From assembly GCF_004010195.1 (NCBI RefSeq), contig NC_057753.1, positions 12,008,570 to 12,072,569 on the forward strand: DNA of 64,000 nt, given 5' to 3'. The stretch is from Chiloscyllium plagiosum. Its lineage: Eukaryota. The notes beneath the pieces were generated by a model that saw only the letters and a program-made list of their open reading frames with translations, was not told the DNA's origin and searched no databases. Shown here piece after piece: positions 4,948-60,974 of this stretch. How positions within the stretch are numbered: position 1 is the stretch's first letter; each line of letters opens with the position of its first letter. A program made the translations under genes and the position numbers.

Positions 4948-5063
4948 CACCTGATGAAGGGGCAAGCGCTACGAAAGCTTGTGATTTCAAATAAGCCCGT
5001 AACCCGGTGTTGAGTGACTTCTGACTTTGTCCACCCCAGTCCAACACCCACCGCCTCTACATC
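4948..5063 (+). mobile_element. Penelope-like terminal fragment, family B, with degenerate hammerhead core
   Basis: cac CTGATGA aggggcaagcgctac GAAA gcttgtg...tttgtccaccccagtccaacac. Confidence 0.65.
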
Positions 5064-5129
5064 AGGCTGGGGTGGACTCGCTTGGGTTACAGAGTAGGAG
5101 GGTCGGGTGTTGACTTGATGGCCTGAAAT

Positions 5130-6940
5130 GGAGTCACAAAGTCCTACAGCACGGAGACCAGGCCCTTCAACCCAAACTGGTCCATGCTGACCGAAATGTC
5201 TGTCCACGCTAACCCCGTTCCCCTGCACTTGGCTCATATCCTTCTAAACCTTTGCTATTCACCTTTGCTATTGTCCAAATGCCTTTTAAATGTTGTTCAT
5301 GTATCCGCCTCAACCACTTCCACTGACAGCTCATTCCATACGCGTACCACCCTCTGTGTAAAAAAAAAGTTGCCCCTCAGGGGTTCCCTTTTATTCTTTC
5401 CCTTCTAATCTTAAACTGATGCCCTCTAGTCCTCGATTCATCATCCCTGGGAAAAAGACCGAGTGCATTCACCCTATACACCTTTATAAGGCCCTCCCCT
5501 CAGTCTTATACACCTCTATAAAGTGTATGCACCTTATACACTTCTATAAGGTCTTATACACCTCTATAAGGTCTTATTGATCTTATACACCTCTATAAGG
5601 TCCTCCCCTCAGTCTCCTACGCTCTTAAGAAAATGTCCTGTCTTGTCCAACCTCTTCCTCTATCCCAGACCATTAAGTTCAGGCAACATCTGTGCCATAT
5701 TCTACTGCCCTCTTTCCAGTTTAGTGACATCCTTCCTGTAGTAAGGTTTCCAAAACTGAACACATTACTCCAAGTGTGGCCTCACCAATGTCCTGTATAA
5801 CTGCAACATAAATTCCCCACTTCAATACTCAGTGCCCTGACTGATGAAGGCCAGTGTGCCAAAAGCCTTTTTCACTGCCCTGTCTAACCGTGACTCCACT
5901 TTCAGAGAACCGTGCACCTGAACTCCAAGGTCCCTCTGTTCCACTACACTCCTTAAGGCCCTACCATTCACCATGAAACTCCTAACTTGATTTGACTTTC
6001 CAAACTGCAGAACCTCACACTGATCCATATGAAATTCTGTTTGCCATTTCTCGGCCCACTTCCCCAGCTGATCAAGGTCCTCTGCAATTTCCGACAACCT
6101 TCCTCACACTGTCCACGATACCACCTATTTTAGCGTCATCACCCAACTGACGTAATCATGCCTTGCCCATTCTCGTCTAAATCATTGATATAGATAACAA
6201 ACAGTAATGGACCCAGCACTGACCCCTGAGACGCTCCACTGGTCACAGGCCTCCAGTCTGACAAGCATCCTTCCACTATTACCCTCTGCGTCCTGCCATC
6301 AAGTCAATTGTGTATTCAACTTTCCAGCTTCCTCAGGTTTCCATGTGATCGAACCTTCCAGAGCAGCCTACCATGTGGAACCTTACCAAAGACCTTACTG
6401 AAATCCATATAGACTATGTCTACCGCCCTGCTTTGATTAACCTTCCTGGTCACCTCATCAAAAGACAAATTTTGTGAGAAATGATCTTCCAAGCACAAAG
6501 ATTGCTCCTAATCAAACCCTGTGTTTCCAAGGGCGGCACGGTGGCACAGTGGTTAGCACTGCTGCCTCACAGCGCCAGAGACCCGAGTTCAATTCCCGAC
6601 TCAGGCGACTGACTGTGTGGAGTTTGCACGTTCTCCCCGTGTCTGCGTGGGTTTCCTCCGGGTGCTCCGGTTTCCTCCCACAGTCCAAAGATGTGCAGGT
6701 CAGGTGAATTGGCCTGTAGTGTTAGGTAAAGGGGTAAATGTAGGGGAATGGGTGGGTTGCGCTTCGGTGGTTCGGTGTGGACTTGTTGGGCCGAAGGGCC
6801 TGTTTCCACACTGTCAGTAATCTAATCTAAGTGCATGTATACCTTCTCTCAGAATCTTTTCAAGTAATCTACCCACTACAGATGTTAAGCTCAATGGTCG
6901 ATAGTTCCCAGGCTTTTCTTTACATGATCTGCTTCCACAC
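5130..6940 (-). mobile_element. CR1/HER1-type LINE RT fragment, interrupted by an HE1 SINE
   Basis: VDIVYMDFSKVFGKVPHGRLL and WAEKWQTEF...ERDLGVQVHGSLK...VKKA are CR1 RT motifs. Confidence 0.88.
6531..6830 (+). mobile_element. HE1-type SINE (V-SINE), near full length
   Basis: A box tggcacagtggttagc, B box gagttcaattccc, conserved central domain, CR1-like tail ending (aatct)n. Confidence 0.9.
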
Positions 6941-7346
6941 TATTAGGGATTTTGCGATTCGACGTGCACCTAAAACAAAATCTCTCTTGAATTCCTCCCC
7001 CCACCAAAACGAACCTAACCTTGGAATTCAAATGTTTCCTTCCTCCAACCATTCTGGCAAATCTGACAACACTTTCCCCCAGAAGTACCGTCGCATCCTT
7101 CATAAAGTGTAGCGTTTGTTAATTTGTGGAGACTCATATGCTCTGCGTTCGTGCGTGTGTGATGCTATCCTGCACTTTGGTCATCTATTCAGCTGGGTCA
7201 GAAACATTAACTCCGATCTCTCTCTCTCTCTCTCCACAGATGCTGCCAGACCTGCTGAGCTTTTTCTGCAATTCCTCTTCCTGTTTATTCTGGTTGTTTC
7301 AGGGGTGAGTACTTTTGACCATACATCTACAATCTGGAGCGTTTTA

Positions 7347-7668
7347 TTTTTTTTTTCTCTGCAGCGCCTACCTCTCCCTGAGCAGCTCAAGGGTGTTGGT
7401 GAACACCACATGCTCCTTCTCCAGAGACAGCCAGGTTCTGAATCTCCTGCTTTTTTTTTTCTTAACCCCCACACTACCACCTAAGTGCGGTAGTGCTTAT
7501 TTTTTTCCCCAGCACCCATGGTGTGTGTGTGTGCAGGTGTGAGACACAGTGAAAGACACAAAGTGCACCAATCTTTATTCAAATTCCACCACCAGGAAGA
7601 TAGGAAAAATAGAGTTGGAGGGAGAAATGATGCACTCCACTCCCTGCGGTGCCCACCTCTCCCTGAAC
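7347..7668 (-). mobile_element. Tx1/L1-type 3' fragments with a 14-bp TSD
   Basis: Reverse complement encodes FRERWAPQGVECIISP and LEKEHVVFTNTLELLRER, with A-tails. tctggagcgtttta is duplicated at 7333-7346 and 7669-7682. Confidence 0.7.
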
Positions 7669-8525: not shown

Positions 8526-8718
8526 ATAAAACCCCAGCTGTTGTGGTTCCTGAGGCGAGGGGCGTTCCCGTTAAGTAAGGAGTCACAAGTCAGCGCCCGC
8601 TCCACACGAATGGCCAACCTTGCTCGGTTCGGTTTCGCGACCTGCCTTCCGCGTTTCCCTGGGTTGCCTCTCACTCCCCCTCTTCCCTGTTTCGACTCAA
8701 TTTCGCGCAAGGGGCCCG

Positions 8719-9609
8719 ATGGAGGAGAGGATTTCGACCGTGGAAGGAAAAAGCACTGCCGTCAGCGGGGAGGAGCTGTACGCGCGTTGCGTGCGTGGAC
8801 GTGGTTCCGACCAACCGTCCGCGGCGTTGCCGCGCCGACGCGGTCAGGCGGAGGAGAAACCGTGGAAATGTGGGGACTGCGGGAAGGGGTACAGGTCGCC
8901 CTCGGACTTGGAGATTCACCAGCGCAGCCACTCCGGGGAGAGGCCGTTCACCTGTTCCGAGTGCGGGAAGGGATTCACCCGGTCTTCCAACCTGCTGACC
9001 CACCGGCGGGTCCACACCGACGAGCGACCCTTCAGGTGCCCAGACTGCGGGCGGGCCTACAAAAGCTCCGGGGAGCTGACGTCCCACCAGCGGGTCCACA
9101 CCGACGAGCGACCCTTCAGGTGCCCAGACTGCGGGCGGGCCTACAAAAGCTCCGGGGAGCTGATGTCCCACCAGCGGGTCCACACCGACGAGAGACCGTT
9201 CCGGTGCTCCCGGTGTGGCTCTGGGTTCAGGCAAGCATCTCAGCTCACCGTGCACCGGCGGGTCCACACCGGCGAGCGGCCGTTCGCCTGCCCCGAGTGC
9301 GGCCGGGGCTTCACCCAGTCCACCGACCTGCTGACCCACCGGCGGGTCCACACCGGGGAGAGGCCGTTCGCCTGCTCGCAGTGCGGCAAGGGCTTCACCC
9401 AGTCGTCCAACCTGCTGACCCACCGCCGGGTTCACACCGGCGAGCGGCCGTTCTCCTGCTCCAAGTGTGGGAAGAGCTTCACGACCTCTTCCACCCTGCT
9501 GAGGCACAGTCGGACTCACAACGGGGAGAGGCCGTTCAGCTGCGCGTTGTGTGGGAAGAGATTCACTCAGTCCTCCAGCCTGGTGAGGCACCAGCAAGTT
9601 CACAAGTGA
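8719..9609 (+). CDS. C2H2 zinc-finger protein, 9 tandem fingers plus a degenerate N-terminal finger (ZNF-A)
   Basis: ORF 8620-9609 with first ATG at 8719 ([10 protein letters not shown]). Nine CxxC-x12-HxxxH motifs with TGERPF/TDERPF linkers. Ends HK*; AATAAA at 9745-9750. Confidence 0.9.
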
Positions 9610-10136
9610 CTGCAGCGATTGGATTTTCCGGTTAACCTGAGACGAAATCACACGCAGGACTGAACCATTCTGACAGGGCCTCTGCCTGCTGACGTTAGCA
9701 AACTCCACCTCGGTTTATAGAGGCGAATATTCTGGATAAAATCAAATAAATTACAAGGACAATGTGAATGTTTTTAAAGTCTTGAAAACAAGTTAGTTTA
9801 TCTTTTGCTGAAGTCCCTTTTTTGAATTTTTCTGTCGGGTAACTGTGGAAACAGGCCGTTCAGCCCGTCGGGTCTACACTGACCCTCCAAAGCGCGTCCC
9901 ACCCAGTCATTTTCCCACCCTATAAGCCTGCACATCCCGTGGCTAATCCACCTAGCCTGCTCATTCTCGGATGCTGGGCAATTTAATAAACGTCGATTCT
10001 CCTGCTGTTCCTGAAGGAGGGCATGTGCCCGAAACGTTGATTCTCCTGCTCCTCGGATGCTGCCTGGCCTGCTGTGTTTTTCCAGCACCACGTTTTTCAA
10101 CCCCAGTCTCCAGCATCTGCAGTCCTCACTTTCTCC

Positions 10137-10544: not shown

Positions 10545-10730
10545 ATGGTCAGAAGTCACACGACACCAAGTTATAGTGCAGCAGGTTTATTTGAAATCTC
10601 AAGCTCTCTGAGCGCTGCCCCCTTCACCAAGTGGAGTGCGCTCCAAAAACGTATTGTTTCAAATAAACCTATTGGACTATGACCTGGTGTTGTGTGACTT
10701 ATGACCTTGTCCAACATCTCCACCTCATGA
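10545..10730. mobile_element. Penelope-like family B inverted-arm element
   Basis: Arm agaagtcacacgacaccaagttatag...tttatttgaaa pairs with tttcaaataaacc...ctataacctggtgttgtgtgactt. Confidence 0.65.
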
Positions 10731-10807
10731 CTGTCTTAAATCATAGAATCCCTACAGTGTGTCAGTCAGTCCACACTGACCTTCTGAAGAGCAATTTCCC
10801 CCACCCC

Positions 10808-12387: not shown

Positions 12388-13154
12388 AGTAGGAGCACCT
12401 CCTTCACTCTGGCTGGAGGACTAACCTAGACTTGAAACGTTAGCTTGTTCTCTCTCCACGGATACCGTCTGACCAGCTGCAACTTCCAGCTTTTGTCGTC
12501 TTCACAAGGATATTGCCAGGGGTTGGAGGGTTTGACCTGTAAAGAGAGAGAGAGAGGCTCTGAGGTTGGAGTGTCGGAGGCTGACTTTACACAAGTTTAT
12601 AAGGTCACGAGGGACATGGATAGGGTGGACGGCCAAGGACTTTTCCCCCCGGGATAGGGGAGTCCAAAACTAGAGGGCTGAGGTTTAAGTTGAGAGGGGA
12701 GAGATTTAACATGGAACCAAACGGGGAATCCTTTTCACACAGAGGGTAGTGCGATTATAGACTGAACTGCCAGAGGAAGTGGGGGAGATTAGATATTCCG
12801 AATCAATCTAGTCTCATTTGCCAGCACTTGTGCCTCTAAACCCTTCCTATTCGTGCCCCTATCCAGATGGCTTTTACTTTTTTGCAAGCATTTGTCGAGA
12901 ACCTTTCACACAGTCCAATAATTACAAAGTGCTTCATAGAGTTTTCTTTAAAGAAGTCTATTAAAAAAAAAAAAGAGGAGGATTGAGAGAGTCAGAGATA
13001 CTTCCAGATCTTTGGGTCTGGGCAGAGTTACCTACATTAGAGCGATGTAGGTGAGGGTAGTGTTACTCTACGGAGACAGACAGTCCAACCGTACCTGCTT
13101 CTGTACTTCTGCATTTGCAACACGCTAAAATTGAAATCCTTCGAAGACCCTCAA

Positions 13155-13355
13155 TAGTTTAAAAATCACACAATACCATGGTTATAGACCAACAGGTTTA
13201 TTTGGAAGCACTAGCTTTTGGAGCGCTGCTCCTTCGTCAGGTTTCAGAGCAGCGCTCCGAAAGCTATGTGCTTCCAAATAAACCTGTTCGGCGATAACCT
13301 GGTGTTGTGCGATTTTTAACTTTGTCCAACCCAGTGCAACACCAGCACCTCCTCT
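13155..13355. mobile_element. Penelope-like family B inverted-arm element
   Basis: Arms tttaaaaatcacacaatacc...ggagcgctgctccttcgtcagg and gagcagcgctccgaaagcta...gatttttaact are reverse complements. Confidence 0.75.
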
Positions 13356-13929
13356 CCATAATTATGCCATTACTTTCCGACCAGATCTTTAAAATTACCA
13401 ATCCCAGACTTTGGTAATTCCAGACATCAGTTTTGTGTCTTAAGCAAAATAGATGATCAATTTATTAAAAACAATAACTTTAGAGAAGAAAATTATATAA
13501 AGTATTACAATTAATGTCTACACTTTAACTTGGCTACACCGTTGTCAGCTCCTCATTCACACAAAGGACAGACAAAGAAACAACCCACAATAATTAAAAG
13601 AAAATTACAAAACTGGCTCGATTACTTATGGAATCCTTACAGTGGAGAAAGAGGCTATTTGGCCCCTCGAAGCTACACTAAGCCTCGAAAGAGCATCCCA
13701 CCAAGATCCACACCATCCCTGTAATTCATTCCTGATCAAGGGCTTATGCCCGAAACGTCGATTCTCCTGCTCCTCGGATGCTGCCTGACCGGCCGCGCTT
13801 TTCCAGCACCACACTCTCGACTCCATCCCTGTAACTCCACGTGGGTTTTGTTTTAAAAAGCCATAGCTAACCAGCACATCCCTGAACGCTGCAGTGCAAC
13901 ATTTAGCCAAACCATCTAAAAACTGCCCA

Positions 13930-14087: not shown

Positions 14088-14679
14088 GCTGCTTTCATCT
14101 GTATTACTTGCAGGCCCTAGCTGCTGTCATTTGGTTGTGACATCGCAAGTGATGCGTGCTGTTTGTCAAGAGCGCAGACCTTCTGAAAGGAACATCATCA
14201 CTTGCAGCAAAGTTGCCCTAAAGATGCCCTGGCGATCCCTCAGGGGTCCCAACTGCCAACGAATTTCCCAGCAAGTTCACGCTTCTGAGGCCCTCTGTAA
14301 ACGTCTCGAAAATGGAGTTATTTAACATTACTTTCACAGCGTGTCGTTTTGCTCAAGGGATGAGGGTGTCGCTGGATAGGTGGACATTTACTAGGAGAGA
14401 GCGAGGAGTGCAGACGCTGGAGATCAGATTCGAAGAGTGTGGCGCTGGAAAAACGCAGTCGGTCAGGCAGCATCCCTGCTGTCACCTTCACCCCCAACTT
14501 CATTGACCTACTGCATTCTCAGCTACCTCCCCACCCCCCCTCCCATTTAGCTTGCAGCCCCCTCCTTGGGCCACATTCCTGATGAAGAGCTTACGCTCGA
14601 AATGTCTACTCTTCTATTCCTCGGATGCTACCTGACCAGCTGTACTTTTCCAGAAACATACTCTTCAGCGGAAGTGAAG

Positions 14680-15328: not shown

Positions 15329-16517
15329 GTATTCGACTTCCACCTCCAGCTTTCCAGTCTCCAAGCTTCCGGAAGCTGGTGAGAGAGAGATGAAGCAGGC
15401 AGCTTTCAAAAGTTCACACCGTGCCAGTAGCAGCCCCTCTGAAAACCAACAGTTTGAAAAAAACACATCCAACTCTGATTCCGCCCTGACAGCCTGATCT
15501 TTTCCCAAGAACCTCAATTACCACTCAACATCCACTTTGAATATAGGGCCTCTTGCAGTCTCACCAGAACCAATTCCTACATAGCGATCGTGTCAGCGCC
15601 CCACTTCTGCGATCCCGGGGTCGCTGTGTCAGGCGAAACCTTTTTAATTCAACGATGAGGCCTGAGCTTCACCAACCAAACAAAGGCTTTTACTTTCACC
15701 ACAAGTCTGTCCCAATTTTCTGCCGCCATTCCATGTTTGCAGCCCCAAACCCAAATGGCTTAAAAGAATAAAAGTAAAACTAATGAAAAATCTGTGAGGG
15801 TTCTGACAGTAGGAAAGGGTCTGAATCAGAGGAGGGAATGGGCATCTTGGGATCAAGGGGATCCCAGGTATGGTCAGTCATGAAGAGAGAGGCTACCTCC
15901 TTGTGGGTCATGATCATGGCTGTGCAGGAGATATCTGCTGGCTTGACACAGGATGACAGACACTGCCTGTGTGGCTTTACACCACAAAGTTGGTCTGCAG
16001 CAGACTTGGGGGTGGCGAGAGGGGAGGTCCAACTCTTCCATGCTGACCAGATATCCCAAATTAATCTTGTCTCATTTGCCCATATCCCTCTGAACCCTTC
16101 CTATTCAGGTGCCTTTTAATTGTATTTGTACCAGTTTCCACCACTTGCTCTGGCATCTCGTTCCACCCACGCACCATCCCCTGCGTAAGAAAGATGCCCC
16201 TCGGGCACCTTTGATATCTTTCCCCTCTTACCTCAAGCCCACGCCCTCTACTTTTGGACTCCCCTACCCTGATTCCTGATGAAGAGCTTATGCTCGAAAC
16301 GTCGACTCTCCTGCTCCTCGGATGCCTTTTCCAGCACTACATTCTTCGATGTCCCTACCCTGGAAAAAAGTCCTTGGCTATTCATCCTTATCCATGCTGC
16401 CAAGGAACAGTGGGGAAAGACCCACCGCCTAAGGTCTTTCTGCTGGAGTTAGAAGGGGTGTCCGTTCAGTTACCTGACCCTCCCAATGCCTCATATCTTG
16501 GTCAATGGGGTGGGGGG

Positions 16518-17545: not shown

Positions 17546-17798
17546 TTGGGAAGGAACAAAGGGATGTTCCCGGATGTGGGGTGGAGCAGGGCAGGAGATG
17601 GTCAATGTCAAAGATGTCCTGGACTCATAAGCAATGGTGATGCTCATGGTTGTTGTCAAGGCACAAAAGCATTGCCTCACCCTGGCTGTTAATGCCAGAA
17701 TCATGAAAGACCTGTCTCGAAAAGGAAAATCAAGGTAAAGGTTTCTCCCAGAGAGGAATGAGGCAAAACCATAAATGGGTGGCAGAGCTCACACTCCA

Positions 17799-17985
17799 GA
17801 GTGCGGCGCTGGAAAAGCACAGCAGGTCAGGCAGCGCCCGAGGCGCAGGAGAGTCGACGTTTCGGGCATAAGCCCTCCATCAGCAATGCGCCCCTTTTTC
17901 CCGATGAAGGGCTTATGCCCGAAACGTCGACTCTCCTGCTCCCCGGGCGCTGCCTGACCTGCTGTGCTTTTCCAGCGCCGCGCTC
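17799..17985. mobile_element. Penelope-like family A fold-back element with hammerhead-like cores
   Basis: Arms of about 80 bp are reverse complements. The right arm contains ccgatgaagggcttatgcccgaaacgtcg. Confidence 0.8.
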
Positions 17986-18049
17986 TTGACCGAGCTCGCG
18001 GCTGGAAATCTGTTGAGTGAGGCTTCTGAGTGCCGAAGTGCTAATTGGA

Positions 18050-18412
18050 AGTCGAGGTGCTTGCTCGTCGGTCTTGCGTGAAGCCCCTCCTGGGGCATGA
18101 GTGCAGACAGAAATGTGGGTAGGGGAGTAAGGTAGTGAATTAAAATAGCGTGCGGCTGGAAAGTCAAGAGTTGTTCTTGAGGATTCAGTTGAGGCGCTCC
18201 ACAAAAAGCAGACTCCAGTCTGCAAATGGCTTCCTCTGTTCAGAGTTGAAAATTGTGGCGCTGGGAAAGCACGGCAGATCAGGCTGGATCTGAGGAGCTG
18301 GCGAATCGATGTTTCCGGCATAAGCTCTTCATCAGGAATGTGGGAGGGGCGGGGAGGGGAGATGGGAAAACTGGTGAAATCGACATTGATGCCTTGTGGG
18401 TGGAGGGTCCCA
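18050..18412 (-). mobile_element. Penelope GIY-YIG C-terminal remnants plus family A terminal repeat
   Basis: Reverse complement reads LGTLHPQGINVDFTSF, followed by cctgatgaagagcttatgccggaaacatcg. Confidence 0.65.
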
Positions 18413-19750
18413 AGTTCGTAGGAGATTTCATTGCGAACTTGTGTCGAAAGAAATGCAGGTAAATTGCGACTTCATTTTGAAGGGGTATTGGAGGCTTTTG
18501 TGAGGAGGTTAAAATGGCATCCATTGCGCCTCATTGAGAAGTTGCAGCAGCGCGGGGGTGGGGGGAAGTGTTGGGGGCGACGAAGGATTGGACCAGGGTG
18601 ACATTGAGGCTACTTCAGTAGGCTGAGAGATGATGTAAATACTGTTCGATTTCTGCACTTCAGGGGCCAAATACTTGAAGTGGAAGCAGTCCACAGAAGG
18701 TTCGCTTATTCTGGGATGGAAGAATTGTGTTTTCTGGAGAAATGTACAGGTTAGGCTTATACTCAGTGATGTTTTGAACAAGGAGAAACAGTCTTAAAAC
18801 ACGTGGGATTCTGAGGGGTCCTAGCAGGATAGACGCTGAGAGGATGTTTCATTCTTTGTCAGGCTGAGTTTAATAATAAGGGATAAAACATTTATTTTCC
18901 TGATGGGTGGCTATTAGTGTTTACCATTCTTTTCCACAGAGAGCAGTGGAGGGTGGATGATTAATATATAAGGCTGAGAGTCAGGTATGTTTTTATTTGT
19001 CAAGGGAGTCAAAGATTATGGGGGTCAGGCAAGAAAGTGGAGTTAAGGCCACAATCATGATTTTAGTCAATGACAGAGAGCAGGCTTCACGGGCTGAATT
19101 AACTACTCCTGCTCCTGTTTCTGAATGATTCAGTGAATCATTGTTTTTTTGAAAAGTGAGAGACCCATCATGTAACTGTCAGAATGTTGGAAATGTGTTG
19201 GTTCTCTGTCGAGTCAAATCGCTTCTGTCCCACACTGAGAAATGCTTGAGATTTGTAAACTCCATCCTCCACGGGAGTTTACTGATCCATTGCTGACAGC
19301 GACCTCAAAGGGTGACAGCTCATCTCGGGGTGGGGGTGGGGTGTAGTGATTGTCATCAGTCCTGGACCAGAAAGAAAAGAGGCGGACTGAGCAGAGGGAG
19401 CTGTTCCTCCAATCGTTCCGAGTAAAGGAAGGATGGGACAACTTTCAGGGCCCAGGAGATGGATAAAGTGTCCCACAAAAAAAAAACGAGAATTTTCTGT
19501 CCTTGTAGTAACGATGTTTATAAACACCTATTGCAGGGGATTGAGCGGACGAATTGCAGACAAAGTAAATCAAACCAAAGACTACAGAGTCTCTCGATTC
19601 GTCAGGGTCCGAATGTAGTCAGCCTTTGAGCGTGGGAAGAGAATTGTTCGTCCATCTGTTTGTGGGAAAATGTTCAATGATTGACGTGATGGGAAGAGCA
19701 TCCAGAATTCCGTTTGCCCCAATGAGGGTGTTCCAATGAACTGAGTGTAG

Positions 19751-20599
19751 AGACAACGTATTGTTGCGCAGACAGGGTTCAGCAGCTCATCCAAACTGGA
19801 GAGACAGAGGAACACCCGCGCCGCATGGAAACCATGGAAGTGCGGGGACTGCGGGAAGGAGTTCCGAAGCCCGTCTGAGCTGGAGGTTCACCACCGCAGT
19901 CACAACGGGGAGAGGCCGTTCATCTGCTCCCAGTGCGGAAAAGGGTTTGCGCAGTCGTTCAACCTGCTGACGCACCAGCGGGTTCACACCGGCGCGAGGC
20001 CGTTCGCCTGCTCAGAGTGTGGGAAGGGATTCACGGATTCGTCCAACCTGCTGAGGCACCGGCGGGTTCACACCGGCGCGAGGCCGTTCGCCTGCTCCGA
20101 GTGTGGGAAGGGATTCACCGACTCCTCCAATCTCCTGAGGCACCGGCGGGTTCACACCGGCGCGAGGCCGTTCACCTGCTCCGAGTGTGGGAAGGAATTC
20201 ACTCAGTCGTCCCATCTGCTGAAACACCAGCGGGTTCACGCTAAGGAGAAACCTGCAGCGCGCCAGGAATGCCATAACAGCGCCAGGGAGCTGACATGCC
20301 GTCGACATGCCAGCACGGAGGAGAAATCGTTCAGGTGCTCTCACTGTGGCGCTGACTTCGGGCGATCATCTGAACTAACTGTGCACCAGCAAATTCACAC
20401 CGAGGAGAAGCTGTTCACCTGCTCCGAGTGTGGGAAGGCATTCGCCGACTCGTCCAGCCTTCTGAGACACCAACAAGCTCACACTGCGGAGAGGCCATTC
20501 ATCTGTACCGGGTGTGGGAAGGGATTCAGCCAGTTTTCCACTCTGCTGGGGCACCAGCATGTTCATGAGCAACTGCAGGCGTTGGATTCCAGCTGTTAA
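19751..20599 (+). CDS. C2H2 zinc-finger reading frame, 8 intact plus 1 degenerate finger, no in-frame ATG (ZNF-B; spliced gene or young pseudogene)
   Basis: Manual translation: open from TAG (19748-50) to TAA (20597-99), reading ...[25 protein letters not shown]...LQALDSSC*. The ORF track shows only the last 72 aa because the first GTG is at 20381. ATG at 19825 is out of frame. Confidence 0.75.
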   Translation, partial: RQRIVAQTGFSSSSKLERQRNTRAAWKPWKCGDCGKEFRSPSELEVHHRSHNGERPFICSQCGKGFAQSFNLLTHQRVHTGARPFACSECGKGFTDSSNLLRHRRVHTGARPFACSECGKGFTDSSNLLRHRRVHTGARPFTCSECGKEFTQSSHLLKHQRVHAKEKPAARQECHNSARELTCRRHASTEEKSFRCSHCGADFGRSSELTVHQQIHTEEKLFTCSECGKAFADSSSLLRHQQAHTAERPFICTGCGKGFSQFSTLLGHQHVHEQLQALDSSC

Positions 20600-40634: not shown

Positions 40635-40858
40635 CTGAAAATGTGTCGCTGGAAAAGCACAGCAGGTCAGGCAGCATCCAAGGAACAGGAGAATTGACGT
40701 TTCGGGCATAAGCCCTTCTTCAGGAATCCATTCCTGAAGAAGGGCTTATGCCTGAAACGTTGATTCTCCTGTTCCTTGGATGCTGCCTGACCTGCTGCGC
40801 TTTTCCAGCAACACATTTTCCGCTCTGATCTCCAGCATCTGCAGTCCTCACTTTCTCC
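40635..40858. mobile_element. Penelope family A fold-back element with a 19-bp TSD
   Basis: Inverted arms; ttgataactttcttcactg at 40616-40634 and 40859-40877. Confidence 0.85.
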
Positions 40859-46700: not shown

Positions 46701-47849
46701 AAGCGCAGGGAATGTTCCAGGAGTTGGCCGATCACTCAGCTTGAAGCAAGCCAGAATTTATCTTGCCCCCACCCCCGAACCAAAGAGGCCAGAGTATGAC
46801 TCTATCTTCTTCTGACAAGATTGCGAGACAGGGAACTCAAGATTGGTGAAGCTGGCATAGCAGGAGAGACAGGGTATGTGATTTACGGAGGGCTTGTGCC
46901 CGAAACCACAATTCTCCTGCTCCTCGGATACTGCCTGTCCTGCTGTGCTTTTCCAGCGTCACACATTTCAGCCATGTGATGTATGGAGCAAGAGAAAGAG
47001 AGCCTGTGATTGGTGGATCAGGAAAACAGGGATAAACGTATATTAGGGACAGCATAGAGAGACTCTATGGGATGGGAGTTTACAACTTTTGATTCTACAA
47101 AATCCTCCTCGCTCATTCATCTCAATTGCAATGAGTGTAGTCCTAGTCTACTCGATCTCTCCTCATAGGGCAACCTTCTCAAGTCTGGAATCATCCTAGT
47201 ACACATCCCCAGTGCCAAAACCTCCTTTCTCAAGTCAAAAGACCGAAACTGTAACACAGTACTCCAGGTGTGGCCTCACCAGCACCCTGTACAGTTGCAG
47301 CTTAACCTCCCTACTTTTAAAACTCCATCCCTGTAACAATGAAAGGCAGTATTCTATTTGCCTTCGTAATTGCCTGCAACTCAACTTTTTGTGATTCTTA
47401 CATGGTATGTGCAGGATAGAGAGAGTAACATAAGGTTCAGAAGGATATGGGCCAAATGCAGGAAAATGGGACTAGTTTAGTTTGGGAAACTTGGATGGGT
47501 TGGACCAAAGGGTCTGTTTCCTGGCTGTCTAATTCTATGACGGCAGCGGTTCTAGAAGGCAGCTCACCAGCACTTTCTCAAGGGGAATTTAATGCTCAAA
47601 ACCTGTGAATAAATGAATAATTTCCGTTTGTGTATGACTCTATGGTATGCATTAAATGTATGTTTTTTTCACTATTCAGTAGTAATGTACATGTAGTGGT
47701 TAGCACTGCTGCCTCAGAGCGCTGGGGACTTGGGTTCGTTTCCACCCTCAGGCAACTGTGTAGAGTTTGCATGTTCGCTTGTCATAATTTGGAGATGCTG
47801 GTATAGGACTGGGGTGCACAAAGTTAAAAATCACACAACCCCCTCAAAC

Positions 47850-50262
47850 TATCACGTCTGTCAAGGAAAGTACAGGTATTTTGACTTATGATCATAAAAA
47901 GATTAACGCAATCTTTAGAAAATTTTATTCTGATTTATATAAATCGCAGGATTGTGAAGACAGGACTTAGGAGGATGCAATCATTTTTTAAAACTTTGAC
48001 CTTTCCAGACCTAACTCCGGAACAGGTATCGGTCTTAAATGCTCCCCCAACAGTCCAAGAAATACTTGACGCAATCAGGCAACTTCAGAGCGGTAAGGCA
48101 CCTGGCCCAGATGGTTTTCAAGCTGAATTCTATAAAGAATTTACAGAAATATTGGCTGGCCCACTTATGGACATCTATAACTACACATACAGTCAGGGCT
48201 GTCTCCCGTCTTCACTGAAAGAGGCAAATATTTCTCTTATCCTTAAAAAAGGAAAGGATCCAGAAGATTGTACGTCATACAGACCAATATCCTTGCTAAA
48301 TGTAGATTTTAAAATCCTTTCTAAAACGTTAGCATTGAGGCTAGAAAGGGTATTGCCACATATTATAAAGGAGGATCAGACGGGTTTAAGGGCCGTAGAT
48401 CATCCAATAATATTAGAAGGGTTTTGAATATGATTCAAGCCTGTCATCAGGGAAAGATTCCAGGAGTAGTGGTTTCATTAGACGCAGAAAAGGCATTTGA
48501 TAGGTTTGAATGGTCATATTTGTTTTACACATTGGAAAGGTTTGGCGTTGGAAAGGTGTTTACCAAATGGGTCTCAAAGCAGTTGTGGTTACCAATGGAT
48601 TAGGCTCGGATAGCTTCAGTGTGGATAGGGGCTGCCATCAGGGATGTCCTCTCTCGCCATTGTTATTTACGCTAATAATTGAACCAGTAGCAGAAGCTAT
48701 ATGGGCTGATCCTAATATAACGGCCCCGAGGATTGGTACAGGTAAACATAAAATTACCCTGTATGCAGATGATGTTCTTCTATTCCTCAGTAATCCTCTG
48801 ATGTCCGTACCTCGCTTAATCCAAGTTATTAATACAATTAGTGCATTCTCAGGCTATAAAATTAATTTCTCAAAATCGGAGGCTATGCCAATGGGCGGCC
48901 TTGCTATGATACCCCACTTAGTGAACGGATCCCACTTTCCCTTTCGATGGTCCCTGGAGGGTTTCTTATATTTAGGCATTTTTGTTACCCCAGTATATGG
49001 TCAGTTATACAAGGCTAACTTTGTGCATTTACTGGAGAGGATAAGGCAGGACCTCCAGCGATGGGGAGACCTTCCAATTTCCTGGCTAGGTAGAATAGCA
49101 CTAATTAAAATGAATGTCCTGCCCCGTCTCCTATACCCTATGAGAATGCTTCCGGTGATGCTGCCGAGGCTGGCACTACGTAAATTATATGGCTGGTTGG
49201 GTTCCTTTATCTGGTATCATAGATGGCCCCTCATTAAGCTGAAGAAGTTACAGCTTCCACAGGTAAGGGGAGGATTGGACTTCCCAGATTTTAGGAAATA
49301 TCAGTTAAGTTCCCTATTAAGTTACATAGCTGATTGGGTCTTGTCTGATCCACAATCAATCTGGCTGGACATTGAGGCTTCTCAAGAAACCCTATAATAC
49401 TAAACACAATTAAAGCTTGGAATAAAATGCGGCAAAATGAGGGCAACTCACATAAAACATCCCACTATGCTCCGATAATGGAAGCATGGGGATTTCAACT
49501 GGGGTTTAGAGATGCCACTTTTGAACTCTGGAGATCCACGGGTATCTCATGTTTAGGGGTCCTGATGTCTTTTGAACAGCTGCGTCAGAAATTCGGATTA
49601 CCTAATGGAGACTTCTTTCGATATTTCCGAATTCGAGATTATATACAGAAGAAGACTACGTTATTAGATAGTCTTTATAAATCAAATAGAGAATGTAGAG
49701 TGCTATGACCAATGGGGGTATCTTCCGTCAGTACTATTTATCATTTACTACATGATGAAGTATCGGGAGATATGGACAATCTGTTTAAAACATGGGATCA
49801 GGATTTGGGACTAGAAATCTCTATAGAAACGTGGAATGACATTTGGGAAAACGCCAGAAGAATCACCATCTGCAACAGAACCCAGGCTATCCAGCTGAAG
49901 ATACTTCATAGGGCCCATATAGCACCGGATCGATTGGCAAAATTTAAGGCAGGAGGATCTCCAATGTGTCCCAAATGTAAAATAAAGGTGGGCACTCTTA
50001 TACATTGCTTATGGACCTGTCATAAGATCTGTAGATACTGGACTAAAGTAGCAAGTACCCTGACAGTAATTTTAGGACCCTGTATCTCTCCTTTTGGGCT
50101 TTTCGAACTTACCGTCCCTGGATATGCACGGGAAGAGATTATTTTCTATTCTCTCTTTCTGTGCAAGGAAAAATATTTTGGTAAACTGGGTGGCTGAGGG
50201 CCAACCCCGGACTTTCAAATTGGCACAGATTAATTATGGAATGTATTCCCCTTGACTTCCTT
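47850..50262 (+). mobile_element. L1-clade LINE ORF2 (RT plus C-terminal CCHC region), 5'-truncated and frameshifted
   Basis: KAPGPDGF..EFYK, YRPISLLNVDFKIL, SLDAEKAFDR, GCHQGCPLSPLLF, YADD, FSGYKINFSKSE and CPKC...TLIHCLWTC, spread across several frames. Confidence 0.93.
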
Positions 50263-50790
50263 AGGTTAGGGTGGATTGGCCGTGCTAAATTACCTCATAA
50301 TGCCCAGGGATATGCAGGTTGGGGTGGATTGGCCGTGCTAAATTACCCATAGTGCCCAGGAATGGGCAGGTTAGGGTGGATTGGCCGTGCTAAATTACCC
50401 ATAGTGCCCAGAGATGTGTAGGTTAGAGTGAATTGGCTATGCTAAATTACCCATAATGTCCAGGGATGTGCAGGTTAGGTTGGATTAGCTACGCTAAATT
50501 ACCCGTAGTGTCTAGGGATGTGTAGGTTCGGGTGGATTGGCCATGCTAATTTTCCGATAGTGTCCAGGGATGTGCAGGTTAGGGTGAATTGGCTTTGCTA
50601 AATTACACAATGTGTCCAGGGTTGTGCAGGTTGGGGTGGATTACCCAATGCTAAATTGTCCCATAGTGTCCAGGGATCTGCAGGTTAGATGCATTCATCG
50701 GGGTAAACATAGAGTCTGGGTGGGTTACTCTTCGGTGGGTTGGTGCGGACGTGTTGGTCCAAATGGCCTGTTTCTGTACTTGTGGGGATT
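50263..50790 (+). repeat. HE1-derived 52-bp unit array (about 8 copies) plus HE1 tail
   Basis: Same unit as 4076-4822, more diverged. Confidence 0.85.
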
Positions 50791-53167: not shown

Positions 53168-53361
53168 GGAGAAAGTGAGGACTGCAGATGCTGGAGGTCA
53201 GAGCTGAAAACGTGTTGCCGGAAAAGCGCAGCAGGTCAGGCAGCATCCAAGGAACAGGAGAATCGACGTTTCGGGCATAAGTCCTTCTTCAGGAACGTCG
53301 ATTCTCCTGTTCCTTGGATGCTGCCTGACCTGCTGCGCTTTTCCAGCAACACATTTTCAGC
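53168..53361. mobile_element. Penelope family A fold-back element with a 15-bp TSD
   Basis: tacatacaaaaggga at 53153-53167 and 53362-53376. Confidence 0.85.
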
Positions 53362-53819: not shown

Positions 53820-54440
53820 AACACTGTGGGAAAACTTAGGGTGGCCGATCTACCTGACCTGACATCGCTGGTCACTATGGCCAAGCTCATTGTCCCACAG
53901 TGTCGAGGGATGTGCAGGTGAGGGTGGGTTGACCATGCTAAATTGTCCTATAGTATGCAGGGATGTGTAGATTCAAGTGGATTGGCCATGCTAAATTGTC
54001 CCAATCCACCTGACTGACACATCCCTGGACACGAGGGGACAACGTAGCACTGCCAATCCACCCGAACATACACATCCCTGGATGCTGTGGGTAATTTAGC
54101 ATGGCCAATTCACATGAACCTGCACATCCCGGGGCACTATGGGTAATTTAGCATGGCCAATTCACATGAACCTGCACATCCCTGGGCACTATGGGTAATT
54201 TAGCACGGCCAATCCTCATGAACCTGCACATCCCTGGGCACTATGGGTAATTTAGCACGGCCAATCCACCCTAACCTGCACATCCCTGGGCACTATGGGG
54301 TAATTTTGCATGGCCAATCCACCCTAAGCTGCACATCTTTGGACTGTGGGAGGAAACCGGAGTTAGTCCCACACAGACACGGGGTGGGGGGGGAAGAGTA
54401 TGTGCAAACTCCACACAGACAGTGGCCCGAGGGTGCTACC
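53820..54440 (-). repeat. HE1 SINE with a 52-bp unit array containing an internally inverted block
   Basis: Units lie on - at 54002-54340 and on + at about 53890-54002. Confidence 0.75.
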
Positions 54441-54469
54441 CCGCCCCAGGAGTGGGCGAGCAGAGGGAA

Positions 54470-54735
54470 CCGAAGCCCTGCGATTGCTGGTGGCCGAGGA
54501 GGACGGAGAACCGAGTGAACCCCTTCCCTCAGGCGGAGCAGGTGACAGACCTCTCCCCGGTGTGGACCCGCCGGGTGGGTCTGCAGGTTGAGCAGCCGGC
54601 TGAATCCCATCCCGCACTCCGAGCAGTCAAACGGCCTCTCTCCAGTGTGACTCCAGCGATGCATCTCCAGTTGGGATGGGCTGTACTAAAAATGTAAGTA
54701 CAGTCGCCATACTCCCACAGCTTCTCCGTGGCGTC
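54470..54735 (-). pseudogene. ZNF pseudogene (frameshifts and an in-frame TGA)
   Basis: Reads TEKLWEYGDC..., HTGERPFDCSECGMGFSRLLNLQTH, frameshift, [30 protein letters not shown] homologous acceptor (ttgtag|gacatcag) is at 55028. Confidence 0.8.
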
Positions 54736-55129
54736 GCTCAGGCTCATTACTGTATTTTATACCGAATGCACGCGACCAACAAAGGATACTCATTTGGATT
54801 CCAGCATCTGGCCAGCGCTAAACGTTCCAAAATATTTTCCAGGCTGCATGACGGAACAATGATCTTTGCATGACAGTGCAGTGAAGCACTCTTCCTGGTG
54901 CCTCTTCCAGTGAGATTTTTCAAGTTTTCACCCAAAAGAAAAGCACAGATCTCCAAATAATCAATCTAGGTCTCAACGCAGTGTTCAGTCTGAGATTTCT
55001 GCCTGCCAGTCCTCCTCTTCTGATGTCCTACAAAAGACAGAAGACCTTACAGCAGGCCTGACTGGATAGAAATTTAAAACAAAGTTTGCAGATGCTTCCG
55101 ACACCACTCTAGGGAGCATAATCAGTGCT

Positions 55130-55810
55130 CCTCCAGTGAAGCGCTATTTGTTCTGTACATTAACGACTTGGATGTGAACATAGAACTCACAATTATTAAT
55201 CTGCCCATGACACTAGAATTAGGGGTGTTGTTGATAGTGAGGAGGAAGGTCTCAGGCTACGTGGAAGGTAATCTTGCTCCAACTTTATAAAACACTGGTC
55301 AAGCTGCCGATGGAACACTATGCGCAGTTCTGGTGGCCAAACTATCAGAAGGACGTGCTTCCACTGGAGAGGGTGTCGGGGAGATTCACCAGGATGTTGC
55401 CTGGGATGGCACGAGGAGAGACTGGATTAGGCTGAGTTTGTTTCCCCTGGAGCAGAGGAGGCAGAGTGGGGATCTGATTGGGAGAAAATTATGAGGGGCA
55501 CAGACAGAGCAGATCATGACAATCTCTTCCACGTGGTTAAGACCGGAAGACATTAGCTTAAGGTGAGGAGTGTATGGTTTAGAGGAAATTTGCGAAAAAA
55601 CTTTCTTTGATCCGGAGTAGGGTAGACACTCTTGAGGCAGGTACTTTCACAACATTTAAGCAGCATTTAAGGTGAGTACTTAAAATGCTGGGGAGCATAG
55701 CAGACTACAGACCAAGCACAGGTAACTGGGATTAGAGTAACTTGGTGCTTGTTGGTTAGTGTAGACACAATGGGCCGATGGGCCTGTTTCTATACTGTAT
55801 GACCCTAATA
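55130..55810 (+). mobile_element. Old CR1 fragment
   Basis: LF.LYINDLD...LYKTLVK...QFW motifs. Confidence 0.7.
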
Positions 55811-56372
55811 CAAATATGACCATACGACGAGACTAAAAATGTAAGACACAGGAGTATATCTCATGACTGATCCACAGGGGAAAGTGAGGATGAACATAAT
55901 TTCATTGGTGAATCTTCAAATTCTGGAGCAGTTGCCTGTAAGGAAGTGGAACAGTCCATAACTTCAAAATTAGATCGGATTGACACGTGGGACAAGTAAG
56001 TTTTTCAGAGTTCCCGAAATATAGAGCCGTTGGCTCTGCAGAGAGTTAGGAGAAAATAAAGACTGCAGATGTTGGAGAGTCAGAGTTGATAAAGTGTGGC
56101 ACTGGAAAAAAAGCACAGCAGGCCAGTTAGCATCAGAGAGTGAGAGAGAGAGAGAGAGAGTGTGTCAACGTTTCAGGCAACTGAAGAAGGGTCCTGTCCG
56201 AAACGGTGACTCTTTTGCTCTTTCGGATGCTGCCTGACCTGCTGTGCTTTTTCCAGCACCACGCTTTCGCATCTGTGCAGAATTAACAGGGACGTCAGTT
56301 GCTGAATGGACTCCTGCAGTGTCAGCATTATTCGACGAGTGGAACTGTATAATCGATATAAACCATTGTTTA

Positions 56373-57210: not shown

Positions 57211-57399
57211 CTTTGCAAAATCTCTTGTCTTTCATTTGCAGAGTTAAAAATCCCACCACACCAGGTTACAATTCCCTGGTGTTGTGTGATTTTTTTTTGT
57301 GTCTTAACTTTGTCCACCCCAATCCAACACCAGCTCCTCCAGATCATTTCATTTGCAGATACATTCTATTTTGCTCAAAAAGCACACAATCTGCAGGCA

Positions 57400-58130: not shown

Positions 58131-58164
58131 ATCAGACAGTTGATAAATCTCTCCTTTGGATATA

Positions 58165-58565
58165 AAACTAGTCTGACTCCAGGTTATGATACAGACAGAC
58201 TCTAACCTTACACCTTTAATGCATTGTCTGAGCTGAGATATCACTTTTTTTATCGATTGATAAAACCTTAAGTTATCTCAGGGTTGTGATTTGAAAGAAA
58301 TTCTGGGATTTACATATTAATTAATTGAAACCTGCATTCTAAATGATTAAAGATGTAACATCCATCTAGGTTTGTCTAATACATTGCACCAGTTGTAAAG
58401 CAATTTGATCTTTTACTTATAAATTCTGTGTCCTATGATCCTGTCCCACTGGCTACCTGAAGGAGCAGCGCTGTGAACGCTTGTACTTTCAAATAACTAT
58501 AACCAGGTGTTGTGTGATTTTTAACATTGTCCATCCCAGTTCAACACTGGCACCTCCACATCACA
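58165..58565 (+). mobile_element. Longer Penelope family B terminal fragment
   Basis: Ends ctacctgaaggagcagcgct...ggtgttgtgtgatttttaac...ggcacctccacatca. Confidence 0.6.
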
Positions 58566-59089
58566 TTTCCCTCCAAGTCATGCAATCTGATTTCAAACAG
58601 CACAGCTTTTCAGCTTTAAGCTCACAAAAAACTTCATCCTCTGTCAGAGAACACTTTGATTTTTGCAGTTCAGCGACTCTGGAGCTGAAATTCGTGGCAT
58701 TTTGTGGAACATGTTTTCATTGTATTAAATGTTACACACACACACACACACACCAATCTGCCATTGGTTGCTGAGGCTCCATGCTCAGAATCCCCTCCCA
58801 AAACATATCTCTCCTCCTTGAAGTAGATTTAGAAATCAATCTCTCTGGCCAAATGTTTTGGTCATCTGTGAAGTAGATTTTGCGATGTGATAGGTTCCAC
58901 ATCAAAGCAAGTTATTGTTACGAGCTGACAAGGCTCACTTCAGGGAGACGATTTTAAATCTGTTTACCATAACGACTACAGACATTTTCAGAAGAGCAGG
59001 ATCGCAATGCATTGGAAGCTTTCCCAGGTCAATGACTGGCATGGCCAGGATGATTTTAATAACAAAAAACCAGGAGGAAGATTTTAAAA

Positions 59090-59850
59090 AGACAAGCTGT
59101 ACAGGACGTTGGTTAGGCCATGTTTGTAGTATTGCGTGCAATTCTGGTCACTTTCCTATCGGAAGAATGTTTTGAAGCATGAAAGGGTTCAGAAAAGATT
59201 TACAAGGATGTTGCCAGGGTTGGAGGGCTTGAGCAGTAGGGAGAGCATGGACAGGCTGGGGCTGTTTTCCCTGGAGCGTCGGAGGCTGAGGGGTGAACTT
59301 ATAGAGGTTTTACAAAACCATGAGGGGCATGGATAGGGTAAAAAAACATGGTCTTTTCCCTGGGGTGGGGGAGTCCAGAACTCGATAGCGTAGGTTTAGG
59401 GTGAGAGGGGAAAGATATAAGGCTTGAGAGGATGGACAGGCTGGGGCTGTGTTCCCTGGGGTGTCGGAGGCTGAGGGGTGACCTTATAGAGGTTTTACAA
59501 AACCATGAGGGGCATGGATAGGGTAAAAAAACATGGTCTTTTCCCTGGGGTGGGGGAGTCCAGAACTCGATAGCGTAGGTTTAGGGTGAGAGGGGAAAGA
59601 TATAAAATAGGCCTAAGGGGCAATTTTTCCACGCAGAGGGTGGTGCATGTATGGAATGAGCTGCCAGAGGAAGTGATGGAGGCTGGTACAATTGCAACAT
59701 TTAAAAGGCAACTGGATGAGTGTATGAATAGGAAGGGTTCAGAGAGACATGGGCCAGGTGCTGGCAAGTGGGTCCAGATTAGGTTGGGATATCCGGGTCA
59801 GCACAAACATGTTGGGCCGAAGGTTCTGGTTCTGTCTATGACTCTATGAC
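59090..59850 (+). mobile_element. CR1 3' fragment with an internal 185-bp tandem duplication
   Basis: gagag(c/g)atggacaggctgggg...gaaagatataa at 59241 and 59426. Confidence 0.85.
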
Positions 59851-60780
59851 ATGAGCAGCAATTTTGTTTTACACAGAGGGCGGGGTTCTTGTATGCAGAA
59901 TGAACTTCCTGAGGAAGTGGCAGATGCGGATACAGTTCCAACGTTTAAAAGACATCTGGATAAGTTCACGATTCGGAAATGTTCGGAGGGATATGGGCCA
60001 AGCGCAGACACGTCGCAGTATTACAATTTGGGATTATGATCAGCACTGAAGACTCTGTGGTTTCTGGCTCTCTGATTCATGAAGAAATATCGGACAGGTC
60101 AGGCATGTGTCTGCTGAAGTTCAGAATTTGGAAAGGATATTTCCCCTAGTGGGAGATTTTGGATCCAGAATTAAAAATAAGGGTCTACCCATTGAAGATA
60201 GAGATGAGGAGAATTTGTTTTTCTCTCTCACACAGAGGTTCACGGGGATTTGGCACCTTCTTATTCAAAAGGCAGTGGAAACAGAGTCTTCAAACATTTT
60301 GAAGACATATTACGGACGTGTAAAGGAGCTGAAGGTTAGCAGGCTGGGTAAGCACCTGGAGTAATTAGGTCAGCCGTGATCTTATTGCTTATCATTTAAA
60401 TAGAGAAAAACTGCAGCACCAAATGGACTTGGGAGTACGAGCACATGAAACACAGAAAATCACACACAAGGGTAACAGAATGTTGGCCCTTATTTCAAGG
60501 GGGTTTGAGTATAAGAGTAGCGGAGTCTGTACAAGGTGCTGGTGAGACCACACATGGAGTACTGCTGGCAGTTTTGGTGCCTTTATTAAAGCAAAGGTTT
60601 CATTTCACTGGAGGAAGTTCAGGAAATGTTCACCAGGGTGATCCCTGGTTATGGAGGGATTGCCTCATGAGCAAAGTGGTTGGCGGTGTGGAAACAGGCC
60701 TTTCGGCTCAACTTGACCCGCCGCCCCGTTTTTCACAATTTAAACTAGTCCCGTTCGCCTGAGCTTGGTCCGTGTCCCGC

Positions 60781-60974
60781 AGAAAGTGAGGACTGCGGGT
60801 GCTGGAGATCAGAGTCGAGAGCGTAGTGCCGGAAAAGCACAGGCAGGTCAGGCAGCATCCGAAGGGCAGGAGAATCAACGTCTCAGGCGTAAGCCCTTCT
60901 GCCCGAAACGGCGATTCTCCTGCTCCTCGGATGCTGCCTGACCTGCTGTGCTTTGCCAGTACTACGCTCTCGAC
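60781..60974. mobile_element. Penelope family A fold-back element
   Basis: Inverted arms; degenerate TSD cttggtccgtgtccc / ctcggtccatatccc. Confidence 0.7.

Follow-up and report, generated by a model that had tools for sequence, protein, structure and literature searches.

The 64,000-nucleotide stretch of DNA analysed here (the window) contains many short units, or stubs, of 90–140 nt that carry hammerhead-like motifs and fall into three families, A, B, and C. The stubs occupy 4020 of the 64,000 bases (~6%), may end in an optional tail of 30–40 nt, and are flanked in some cases by target duplications of 9–19 bp. A profile search detected 27 A-like, 12 B, and 3 C segments in the window and none in the reversed window; the profiles were made from window copies (10 A, 9 B, and 3 C), so those copies match by construction. 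Two family A copies follow the end of an open reading frame (ORF) of a Penelope-like element (PLE):

28486–28969, +: C-terminal remnant of a Neptune-type PLE ORF (linker and GIY-YIG); frameshift near 28720, frame stop at 28967
29011–29140, +: family A terminal repeat (pLTR) with tail, the 3′ end of a 5′-truncated element starting near 28458; core at 29015–29042
18238–18441, −: second endonuclease-linked family A copy, with the last ~30 ORF codons, the UTR, and an untailed pLTR; stem II broken

The remnant shares 79% identity with protein P0001, with profile matches at 28486–28764 and 28721–28906. This confirms the GIY-YIG remnant that the initial annotation had placed at 28495–28910, now delimited to 28486–28906. 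The family A core begins at 29015, downstream of the frame stop at 28967. Reads and contigs span 28458–29150 without a break. A 7 bp repeat at 28451 and 29139 may belong to the tail and is not counted as a firm target duplication. In the second copy, 18352–18441 is matched by tblastn with P0154, P0159, P0166, and P0176, and 18351–18414 is matched by blastn. A weak endonuclease-like match at 18061–18168 (E 5e-4) was not backed by the profile search and was discarded. P0159, an RT-endonuclease model from the zebra shark Stegostoma tigrinum, continues into 14 residues matching the translated family A core; its score of 46 against this core is the highest among 272 proteins, the next being 35. Because the GIY-YIG end precedes family A twice in the window and also in the zebra-shark protein model, family A is identified by its placement as the pLTR of a Neptune-type PLE. 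The tie to a PLE endonuclease drawn in the initial annotation is thereby upheld by two window copies (28486–29140 and 18238–18441) and by P0159. The CX2-5CxxC linker before the C-terminal GIY-YIG is intact in P0001 and in 98 of 104 and 89 of 129 relatives; one of its cysteines is changed in the window ORF copy, and the linker also occurs in Nematis, so it is not Neptune-only (PMC8557442). The RT is known from the relatives and not from the window, where the endonuclease piece alone gives no Pfam match. The nearest named proteins come from Chiloscyllium, Rhincodon, and Stegostoma, in agreement with the shark host presumed earlier. When the 272 proteins were searched for an ORF start that reads through the tail, none matched. 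Scans of viral and metagenome contigs with the family A pattern returned nothing, and of the 164 pattern matches from a protein scan of metagenome contigs, none was confirmed. With a profile built from the relatives of A only, neither B nor C could be linked to an ORF in the window; B and C probably represent the ends of two further PLE families.

A strict hammerhead scan (CUGANGA, 0–1 extra base, a stem of at least 4 pairs, and GAAA) yielded nine matches in the window versus a mean of 0.17 (maximum 1) in 30 dinucleotide shuffles. Allowing a single mismatch in the core raised these figures to 17 and 3.4 (maximum 8), respectively. The motifs lie at the positions previously reported, with several copies requiring correction. 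The loop of the 29015 copy is UUUU rather than UUAU, and the cores at 13732 and 17901 are broken by changes at G8 and U4, respectively. The family B copy at 13210–13245 (−) has lost G12 and the CAC arm, and stem II of the family B copy at 40321 pairs through wobbles (GGAGU/GCUCU). The copy near 18335 (−), described as part-compensated, is broken and keeps two of four stem II pairs, and stem III of family C is ACAU, which is not palindromic. The minimal type-I pattern of PLEs (CUGANGA, one extra base, a G-C-opened stem II, GAAA, and N-N-U-H) is satisfied and is intact only in a minority of copies; core, palindrome, and four-pair stem II are all kept in just 4 of the 17 mapped family A copies. 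Putative hammerhead cores exist in three unrelated families that fit the published minimal PLE hammerhead consensus, and their earlier assignment to minimal type-I hammerheads of the Penelope-like kind is right by this fit.

The compensated stems II, GAGC/GCUC at 14579 and 16276 in family A and GAAG/CUUC at 40533 in family B, are real, each representing a single pair change. The stem covariation claimed in the initial annotation holds to that extent, but it involves one pair per family and does not rise above shuffles: 1 of 6 pairs in 12 family A copies (107 of 500 shuffles score equally high) and 1 of 9 pairs in five family B copies (177 of 500). The structural evidence proper lies between families, in that three unrelated sets of stem II and stem I sequences are predicted to pair around one common core. 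Non-CpG mismatches in family A amount to 10/152 in the core versus 66/805 outside it (downstream; p=0.62). The core is thus no better conserved than its flanks, an outcome named beforehand as counting against the motif. Since the copies are dead, core and flank decay equally, and the motif is hence not refuted by equal conservation.

The stem III segment (15.1–16.1) is ACGU in A and AGCU in B, with predicted duplex energies of −1.7 and −2.5 kcal/mol, and the ACAU of family C gives +3.4 kcal/mol. Helix I comprises two contiguous pairs in A, 3–4 in B, and three in C, with a predicted pairing probability of ≤0.25; a two-pair helix I has precedent among minimal hammerheads (PMC4209133). Folding predictions did not favour the active fold for monomer or dimer, and the stem III segment was used in no predicted dimer. 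The proposed comparison with Rfam hammerhead models remained below threshold everywhere, neither the window nor any of three local scans giving a hammerhead match at E values up to 10. The best Rfam matches to the stubs are miRNA precursors. A pile of molecule ends at the cut site was absent in run X19, an insensitive library of poly(A) single-cell reads. We propose that the hammerhead is a weak, dimer- or protein-dependent ribozyme that is kept in master elements and decays neutrally in copies.

Family A further comprises the following insertions:

14391–14668: head-to-head pair; tailed arm (−, 5′-truncated), ~100 nt of probable UTR (identified by inspection only), untailed arm (+) with GAGC/GCUC stem II
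17796–17989: head-to-head pair, both arms untailed; one substitution in each core
40635–40858: head-to-head pair, untailed (−) and tailed (+); both begin at ATTC; 19 bp target duplication
53168–53361: head-to-head pair, tailed (−) and untailed (+); 15 bp target duplication
56047–56270: diverged head-to-head pair, tailed (−) and untailed (+); found by profile
60779–60974: head-to-head pair, tailed (−) and untailed (+); both arms 5′-clipped
10008–10135, +: solo with tail; short partial duplicate just before
13728–13822, +: solo without tail; G8 changed; 12 bp target duplication
16272–16352, +: solo without tail, core intact, GAGC/GCUC stem II; 10 bp target duplication abutting ATTC
34732–34830, +: solo; stem II decayed
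46885–46973, +: solo, 5′-clipped; target duplication probable
63434–63522, +: solo without core; begins ~1 nt from the predicted scissile bond

Families B and C are represented by:

4947–5062, +: family B solo with tail; found by profile
10547–10734: family B head-to-head pair, untailed (−) and probably tailed (+); 10 bp target duplication
13158–13357: family B head-to-head pair, untailed (−, G12 lost) and tailed (+); found by profile
40317–40440, +: family B solo with tail, core intact; found by strict scan and profile
40461–40614: family B head-to-head pair, tailed (−, truncated) and untailed (+, GAAG/CUUC stem II); 9 bp target duplication
57243–57346: family B head-to-head pair without cores, untailed and tailed; 13 bp target duplication
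58452–58563, +: family B with tail, core partly deleted; found by profile
47787–47842, −: family B 3′ fragment with tail; found by profile
25670–25961: family C head-to-head pair; core intact on − (C3 at 25748), altered on +
55060–55151, −: family C unit, decayed; found by profile

The head-to-head pairs, tails, and target duplications had been overlooked in the initial annotation. The 11 pairs are found in A, B, and C, and target duplications exceed chance in five of these pairs and in five of 11 solo copies. A tailed arm is joined to an untailed one in eight of nine clear pairs (p=0.02), or in 10 of 11 counting two probable pairs; two tailed arms never occur together. The arms within one pair share private variants. 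According to our reading of the alignments, the arm more complete at its 5′ end is the untailed one in five pairs and the tailed one in three, with three ties. Fold-back synthesis with fixed polarity is not favoured, as neither arm class is consistently fuller, and the idea that arms join at either the palindrome of stem III or the cut site was rejected, as junctions vary between copies. In the family C pair, the + arm is probably ~30 nt longer, and the target duplication of the pair is not above chance. The family A pair at 40635–40858 adjoins the end of the family B pair at 40461–40614.

Near-perfect palindromes of 160–270 bp carrying target duplications recall MITE-like DNA elements with terminal inverted repeats, in which the hammerhead would be incidental. 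However, the arm ends are unequal, the centres vary, and duplication length ranges from 9 to 19 bp; moreover, solo arms are flanked by separate duplications, and the sequence of the arm forms the 3′ end of an RT-endonuclease element. This explanation is extremely improbable, and for family A it is refuted by the ORF link. Retrozymes, in which hammerhead-cleaved monomers of tandem repeats are circularised and reinserted, are likewise very improbable. They have been reported in vertebrates, including one chondrichthyan, and would account for type-I hammerheads with a palindromic stem III in A and B, but none of the 27 tandem-array rows in the window contains a hammerhead. The pairs are inverted rather than head-to-tail, copies start upstream of the core rather than at the cut site and show no circular permutation, and RNA ends do not pile up, the last being a weak test with poly(A) single-cell reads.

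Among 21 window copies of family A, nine start within 1 nt of the equivalent of 29011, three further upstream, and nine internally. This sharp start lies at ATTC, preceding the core by 4 nt, rather than at the cut site, which corresponds to a predicted scissile bond at 29042/29043 in the 29011–29140 copy. The elements had been regarded as ribozyme-processed, a view that the data do not support: cleaved RNA would start at 29043, and the copies begin upstream of the core and retain the uncut site. The fixed 5′ end argues for a template that would not be hammerhead-cleaved, in agreement with the in vitro result in Anolis. In three runs, loose read ends accumulate in front of 29011 (1512, 352, and 453), and their low agreement indicates unrelated flanks; run X20 yielded 0 aligned reads. 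A mismatch found only in the window copy explains the read joints at 29045–29048, and indels likewise confined to that copy coincide with a further loose-end pile behind 29095.

A fixed 5′ end would also be expected if the short units were true non-autonomous elements, in which masters no longer than a stub would be transcribed independently and rely on PLE proteins for mobilisation in trans. In run X19, the depth of the pLTR is 2768, compared with 41 for the UTR and ≤112 for the endonuclease, a 25- to 67-fold excess that is an upper bound because the window endonuclease copy differs from most reads. The stubs show subfamily structure, with a CUGAAGA group (40723, 40734, and 53292) whose members are 92–97% alike; no ORF was found in the window for B and C; and such PLE derivatives have been described (PMC8557442; preprint 10.64898/2026.07.22.740005). 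Against this, the stubs have no sequence of their own. The family A unit consists only of pLTR and tail sequence, which likewise terminates endonuclease-bearing copies, and the non-autonomous lineages of the initial annotation are unsupported on this account. The tail would have to be templated from downstream of the pLTR, a sequence missing in untailed stubs, and pair centres vary by copy. RNA reads divide almost evenly between the strands (1206 vs 1563), the pattern expected of passengers in host transcripts. Such masters are unlikely, and run-off copies of an autonomous RNA fit better.

In our view, the units probably represent short, dead insertions of the pLTR of endonuclease-positive PLEs, Neptune-type for A and probably two other PLE families for B and C, produced as run-off copies of uncut RNA. 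The PLE RNA would begin just ahead of the hammerhead, as the sharp 5′ end suggests, and the RT-endonuclease would nick the target with a stagger of 9–19 nt, the length of the observed duplications. Reverse transcription would start at one of two internal sites 30–40 nt apart, in keeping with the two observed 3′ ends, and would run to the RNA 5′ end to give a stub of ~95 or ~130 nt. Extension from both target strands would generate the head-to-head pairs, rare longer copies would continue into the upstream ORF end, and the hammerhead would stay uncut in the template. More tentatively, each stub pair may reflect twin priming on one uncut PLE RNA, in which the two nicked strands would start at the RT sites flanking the tail and copy to an RNA 5′ end 4 nt ahead of the hammerhead, the cDNA ends then being joined. 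The excess of tailed and untailed combinations (8/9) is what priming of both target strands on a single RNA would produce, and the private variants shared within pairs and the lack of a consistently fuller arm class add support. If true, single-RNA twin priming would account at once for the fixed 5′ end, the inversion of the pLTR, and the presence of a tail on one side only, and stub-rich shark genomes would offer a natural read-out of the PLE insertion mechanism. Judged by title, no literature on twin priming in Penelope elements was found.

The motifs are mostly decayed end-pieces of a known PLE class, and the paired-copy layout is the sole point of some interest; its tailed/untailed asymmetry can be counted genome-wide. 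The formation of PLE inverted repeats and tails is stated as an open question in PMC8557442. The present data extend minimal PLE hammerheads to shark-type genomes, the element class itself being already known. No study of shark PLE hammerheads was found in the literature, supplementary file 2 of PMC4209133 (that file only) contains no shark name, and repeat databases may already include A, B, and C. The resemblance of the stubs to MITEs or miRNA hairpins is a source of misannotation.

Minimal hammerheads (min-HHRs) sit in the pLTRs of metazoan PLEs (Cervera and De la Pena 2014, PMC4209133). As in those described there, the window motifs have CUGANGA, one extra base (A, A, and U), G10.1-C11.1, no real helix III, a short helix I (2–3 pairs), and, in A and B, a palindromic 15.2-16.2. 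They also occur mostly as single copies with some opposite-strand pairs and as several families per genome, and a C-A variant resembling family C is reported for Latimeria. In contrast, stem II of family A is short (4 pairs), and activity here is predicted from sequence. Insertions of endonuclease-positive PLEs show 5′ truncation, an inverted pLTR, and a one-sided tail of 30–40 bp (Craig 2021, PMC8557442; Arkhipova 2013, PMC3846280). The window shares with them head-to-head inverted copies, the one-end tail of 30–40 bp, target duplications, and solo pLTRs, whereas most insertions here are pLTR-sized only, cover ~6% of the window, and have a fixed 5′ end at the hammerhead. Animal non-LTR retrozymes likewise have a type-I hammerhead, pLTR ancestry, and dispersed monomers, but they are defined by tandem hammerhead units, of which the window has none (preprint 10.64898/2026.07.22.740005). 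In PAc, the Anolis Poseidon element, two internal RT start sites bound the tail, both target strands are cut and extended, insertion proceeds without the need of hammerhead cleavage, and RNA ends are absent at the cut site (Frangieh 2024, PMC11167929). PAc belongs to the Poseidon clade and was assayed directly, whereas family A is Neptune-type and the window elements are known from sequence. For PAc, start sites are reported not to differ between the strands, whereas the window pairs mostly combine one tailed and one untailed arm.

The motifs lie at the positions given in the initial annotation and are much commoner than chance predicts: a strict hammerhead pattern matches the window 9 times, against 0.17 in 30 shuffles. 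Profiles made from the window's own copies pick out segments of all three families (27 A-like, 12 B, 3 C; together 4020 bases) and none in the reversed window. The quoted copies do carry the motifs, but many are damaged: core substitutions occur in copies 13732, 17901 and 13240(-), half of stem II is unpaired in copy 18335(-), and of the 17 A copies mapped, no more than 4 retain core, palindrome and stem II. Stem III of family C is ACAU, which is not a palindrome. Six of the 27 A-like segments have lower scores and resemble an older subfamily related to A, probably a fourth subfamily of Penelope-like elements (PLEs). Four of these were inspected; in the segment at 29882 the core is decayed, N7 is G and stem II is longer.

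Older A-related segments (profile scan), sharing the downstream part with family A
3445-3501(-)
7199-7272
12414-12490
22941-23034(-)
29882-29991
30034-30134

As annotated, family A adjoins a remnant of the PLE endonuclease domain (GIY-YIG). This remnant, at 28486-28969, represents the C-terminal part of an RT-GIY-YIG protein, with 79% identity to a Chiloscyllium punctatum model. A cysteine linker ahead of the C-terminal endonuclease, present in 98 of 104 relatives and a clade feature according to PMC8557442, marks it as putatively Neptune-type, not Penelope/Poseidon. Since ORF ends precede two A copies, 29011-29140(+) and 18335(-), and a Stegostoma protein model runs on into the translated A core, family A is the terminal repeat (pLTR) of this element. 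No ORF linked to B or C was found within the window, and both are provisionally assigned to PLEs only by motif and insertion structure.

The annotated stem covariation exists as double changes, but its within-family signal is thin. Both partners of a single pair have changed in two of the 12 A copies (equal or higher score in 107/500 shuffles), and the same holds for one of the five B copies (177/500); each may be a single inherited event. The core is not better conserved than the downstream sequence (mismatches 10/152 versus 66/805 in A copies, p=0.62), as expected of copies decaying after insertion. Comparison between families is, at the sequence level, the stronger structural evidence: A, B and C have no stem sequence in common, yet each forms paired stems around the same core, stem II and stem I, the latter short. 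The A-core subfamily change falls at the free position N7, and all three families agree with the PLE minimal hammerhead consensus of PMC4209133, which reports no activity for monomers of such motifs and weak activity for dimers. Rfam hammerhead models gave no match in whole-window or local scans. Stem II is predicted in 6 of 8 folded constructs, the A15.1-U16.1 pair in none of the 8, and a dimer built on the palindrome is absent from the predictions. The hammerhead motifs are real and belong to an already-known kind of element. The units are unlikely to be retrozymes, as no tandem array in the window holds a hammerhead. Six C2H2 arrays place the window within a zinc-finger gene cluster. The reverse transcriptase remnant, presumably L1-like by its motifs, does not match the PLE RT profile.

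Surrounding features
8575-9606(+), C2H2 zinc-finger array
19751-20596(+), C2H2 zinc-finger array
23340-24125(+), C2H2 zinc-finger array
35915-36691(-), C2H2 zinc-finger array
42363-43145(-), C2H2 zinc-finger array
54296-54685(-), C2H2 zinc-finger array
47885-50194(+), frameshifted reverse transcriptase remnant (Pfam RVT_1)
4076-4822, 50263-50688 and 54018-54337, a single 52 bp tandem unit in dispersed arrays, both orientations (tandem-repeat scan)

Sequencing reads from runs X15, X1, X19 (RNA, about 2 in 100 reads sampled) and X20 were compared with 28400-29260; X20 gave no matching reads there. Coverage is unbroken from the endonuclease to the tail, an optional 3' extension, and rises sharply at 29011. 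X19 depth is 2768 in the pLTR, 41 in the UTR and at most 112 in the endonuclease, the ratio being an upper bound. Loose read ends accumulate before 29011 (X15 1512, X1 352, X19 453), where strand-switching joints also begin among the rows listed (18 of 1414). This position lies 4 nt upstream of C3, whereas the predicted cut is at 29042/29043. The fixed 5' end is thus upstream of an uncut site, and the description "ribozyme-processed" is unsupported. X19 reads split about equally between strands and show no accumulation of molecule ends, in a library poorly suited to detecting cleavage. Only one A copy, 63434-63522(+), begins within about 1 nt of the predicted cut site, and chance truncation could explain this isolated case. 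Branch-point-like, pyrimidine-rich, AG-ending stretches 3' of the core, at ~29066-29092(+) in A and ~40400-40420(+) in B, resemble 3' splice sites; no spliced joint occurs in family A reads over 28400-29260 among the rows listed (18 of 1414).

The window contains 11 head-to-head pairs. In both family A and family B, copies end at one of two 3' positions ~30-40 nt apart. Eight of the nine clear pairs consist of one tailed and one untailed arm, the ninth of two untailed arms (p=0.02 versus even odds); two further pairs are probably mixed. With element edges placed by eye, the target duplications of 5 of 11 pairs (9-19 bp) and of 5 of 11 solo copies lie above a random-edge control. Private variants tend to be common to both arms (0.94, 0.92, 0.97 and 0.89; 0.77 in the 56.1 kb pair), a pattern that subsequent gene conversion could likewise produce. 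At 40317-40877, a B solo copy clusters with one pair each of B and A, the A pair inserted at the end of the B pair, which suggests that PLE ends are favoured targets. The palindromic pairs at 17831-17952, 40396-40509, 53239-53326 and 60786-61003 give sub-threshold Rfam hits to miRNA precursors; if transcribed, such pairs would form long hairpins.

The ORF link for A, the two 3' ends, the 5' end fixed upstream of the cut site, the pairs and the duplications are established. In PMC11167929, on a PLE of Anolis, both target strands are cut and extended by the element's protein, reverse transcription starts at two internal sites bounding the tail, and hammerhead cleavage is dispensable. The units are probably PLE run-off stubs: element RNA would begin at the fixed 5' end, 4 nt before C3, and the stubs would be copies begun at the internal sites. 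More tentatively, a single RNA might be primed by both target strands, each strand starting at a different one of the two sites. Generation of the stubs by a separate non-autonomous master element is less likely, and the annotated "non-autonomous" status is unsupported, family A being the pLTR of an ORF-bearing element.

The palindromic pairs are also unlikely to be MITEs. Inverted pLTRs with a one-sided tail are known PLE features, described in PMC8557442 and PMC3846280. In the middle of the family C pair (25798-25836) lie TATAAATA and, 33 nt later, TTCACT, a possible promoter similar to the TATA/Inr arrangement of rotifer pLTRs described in the latter.
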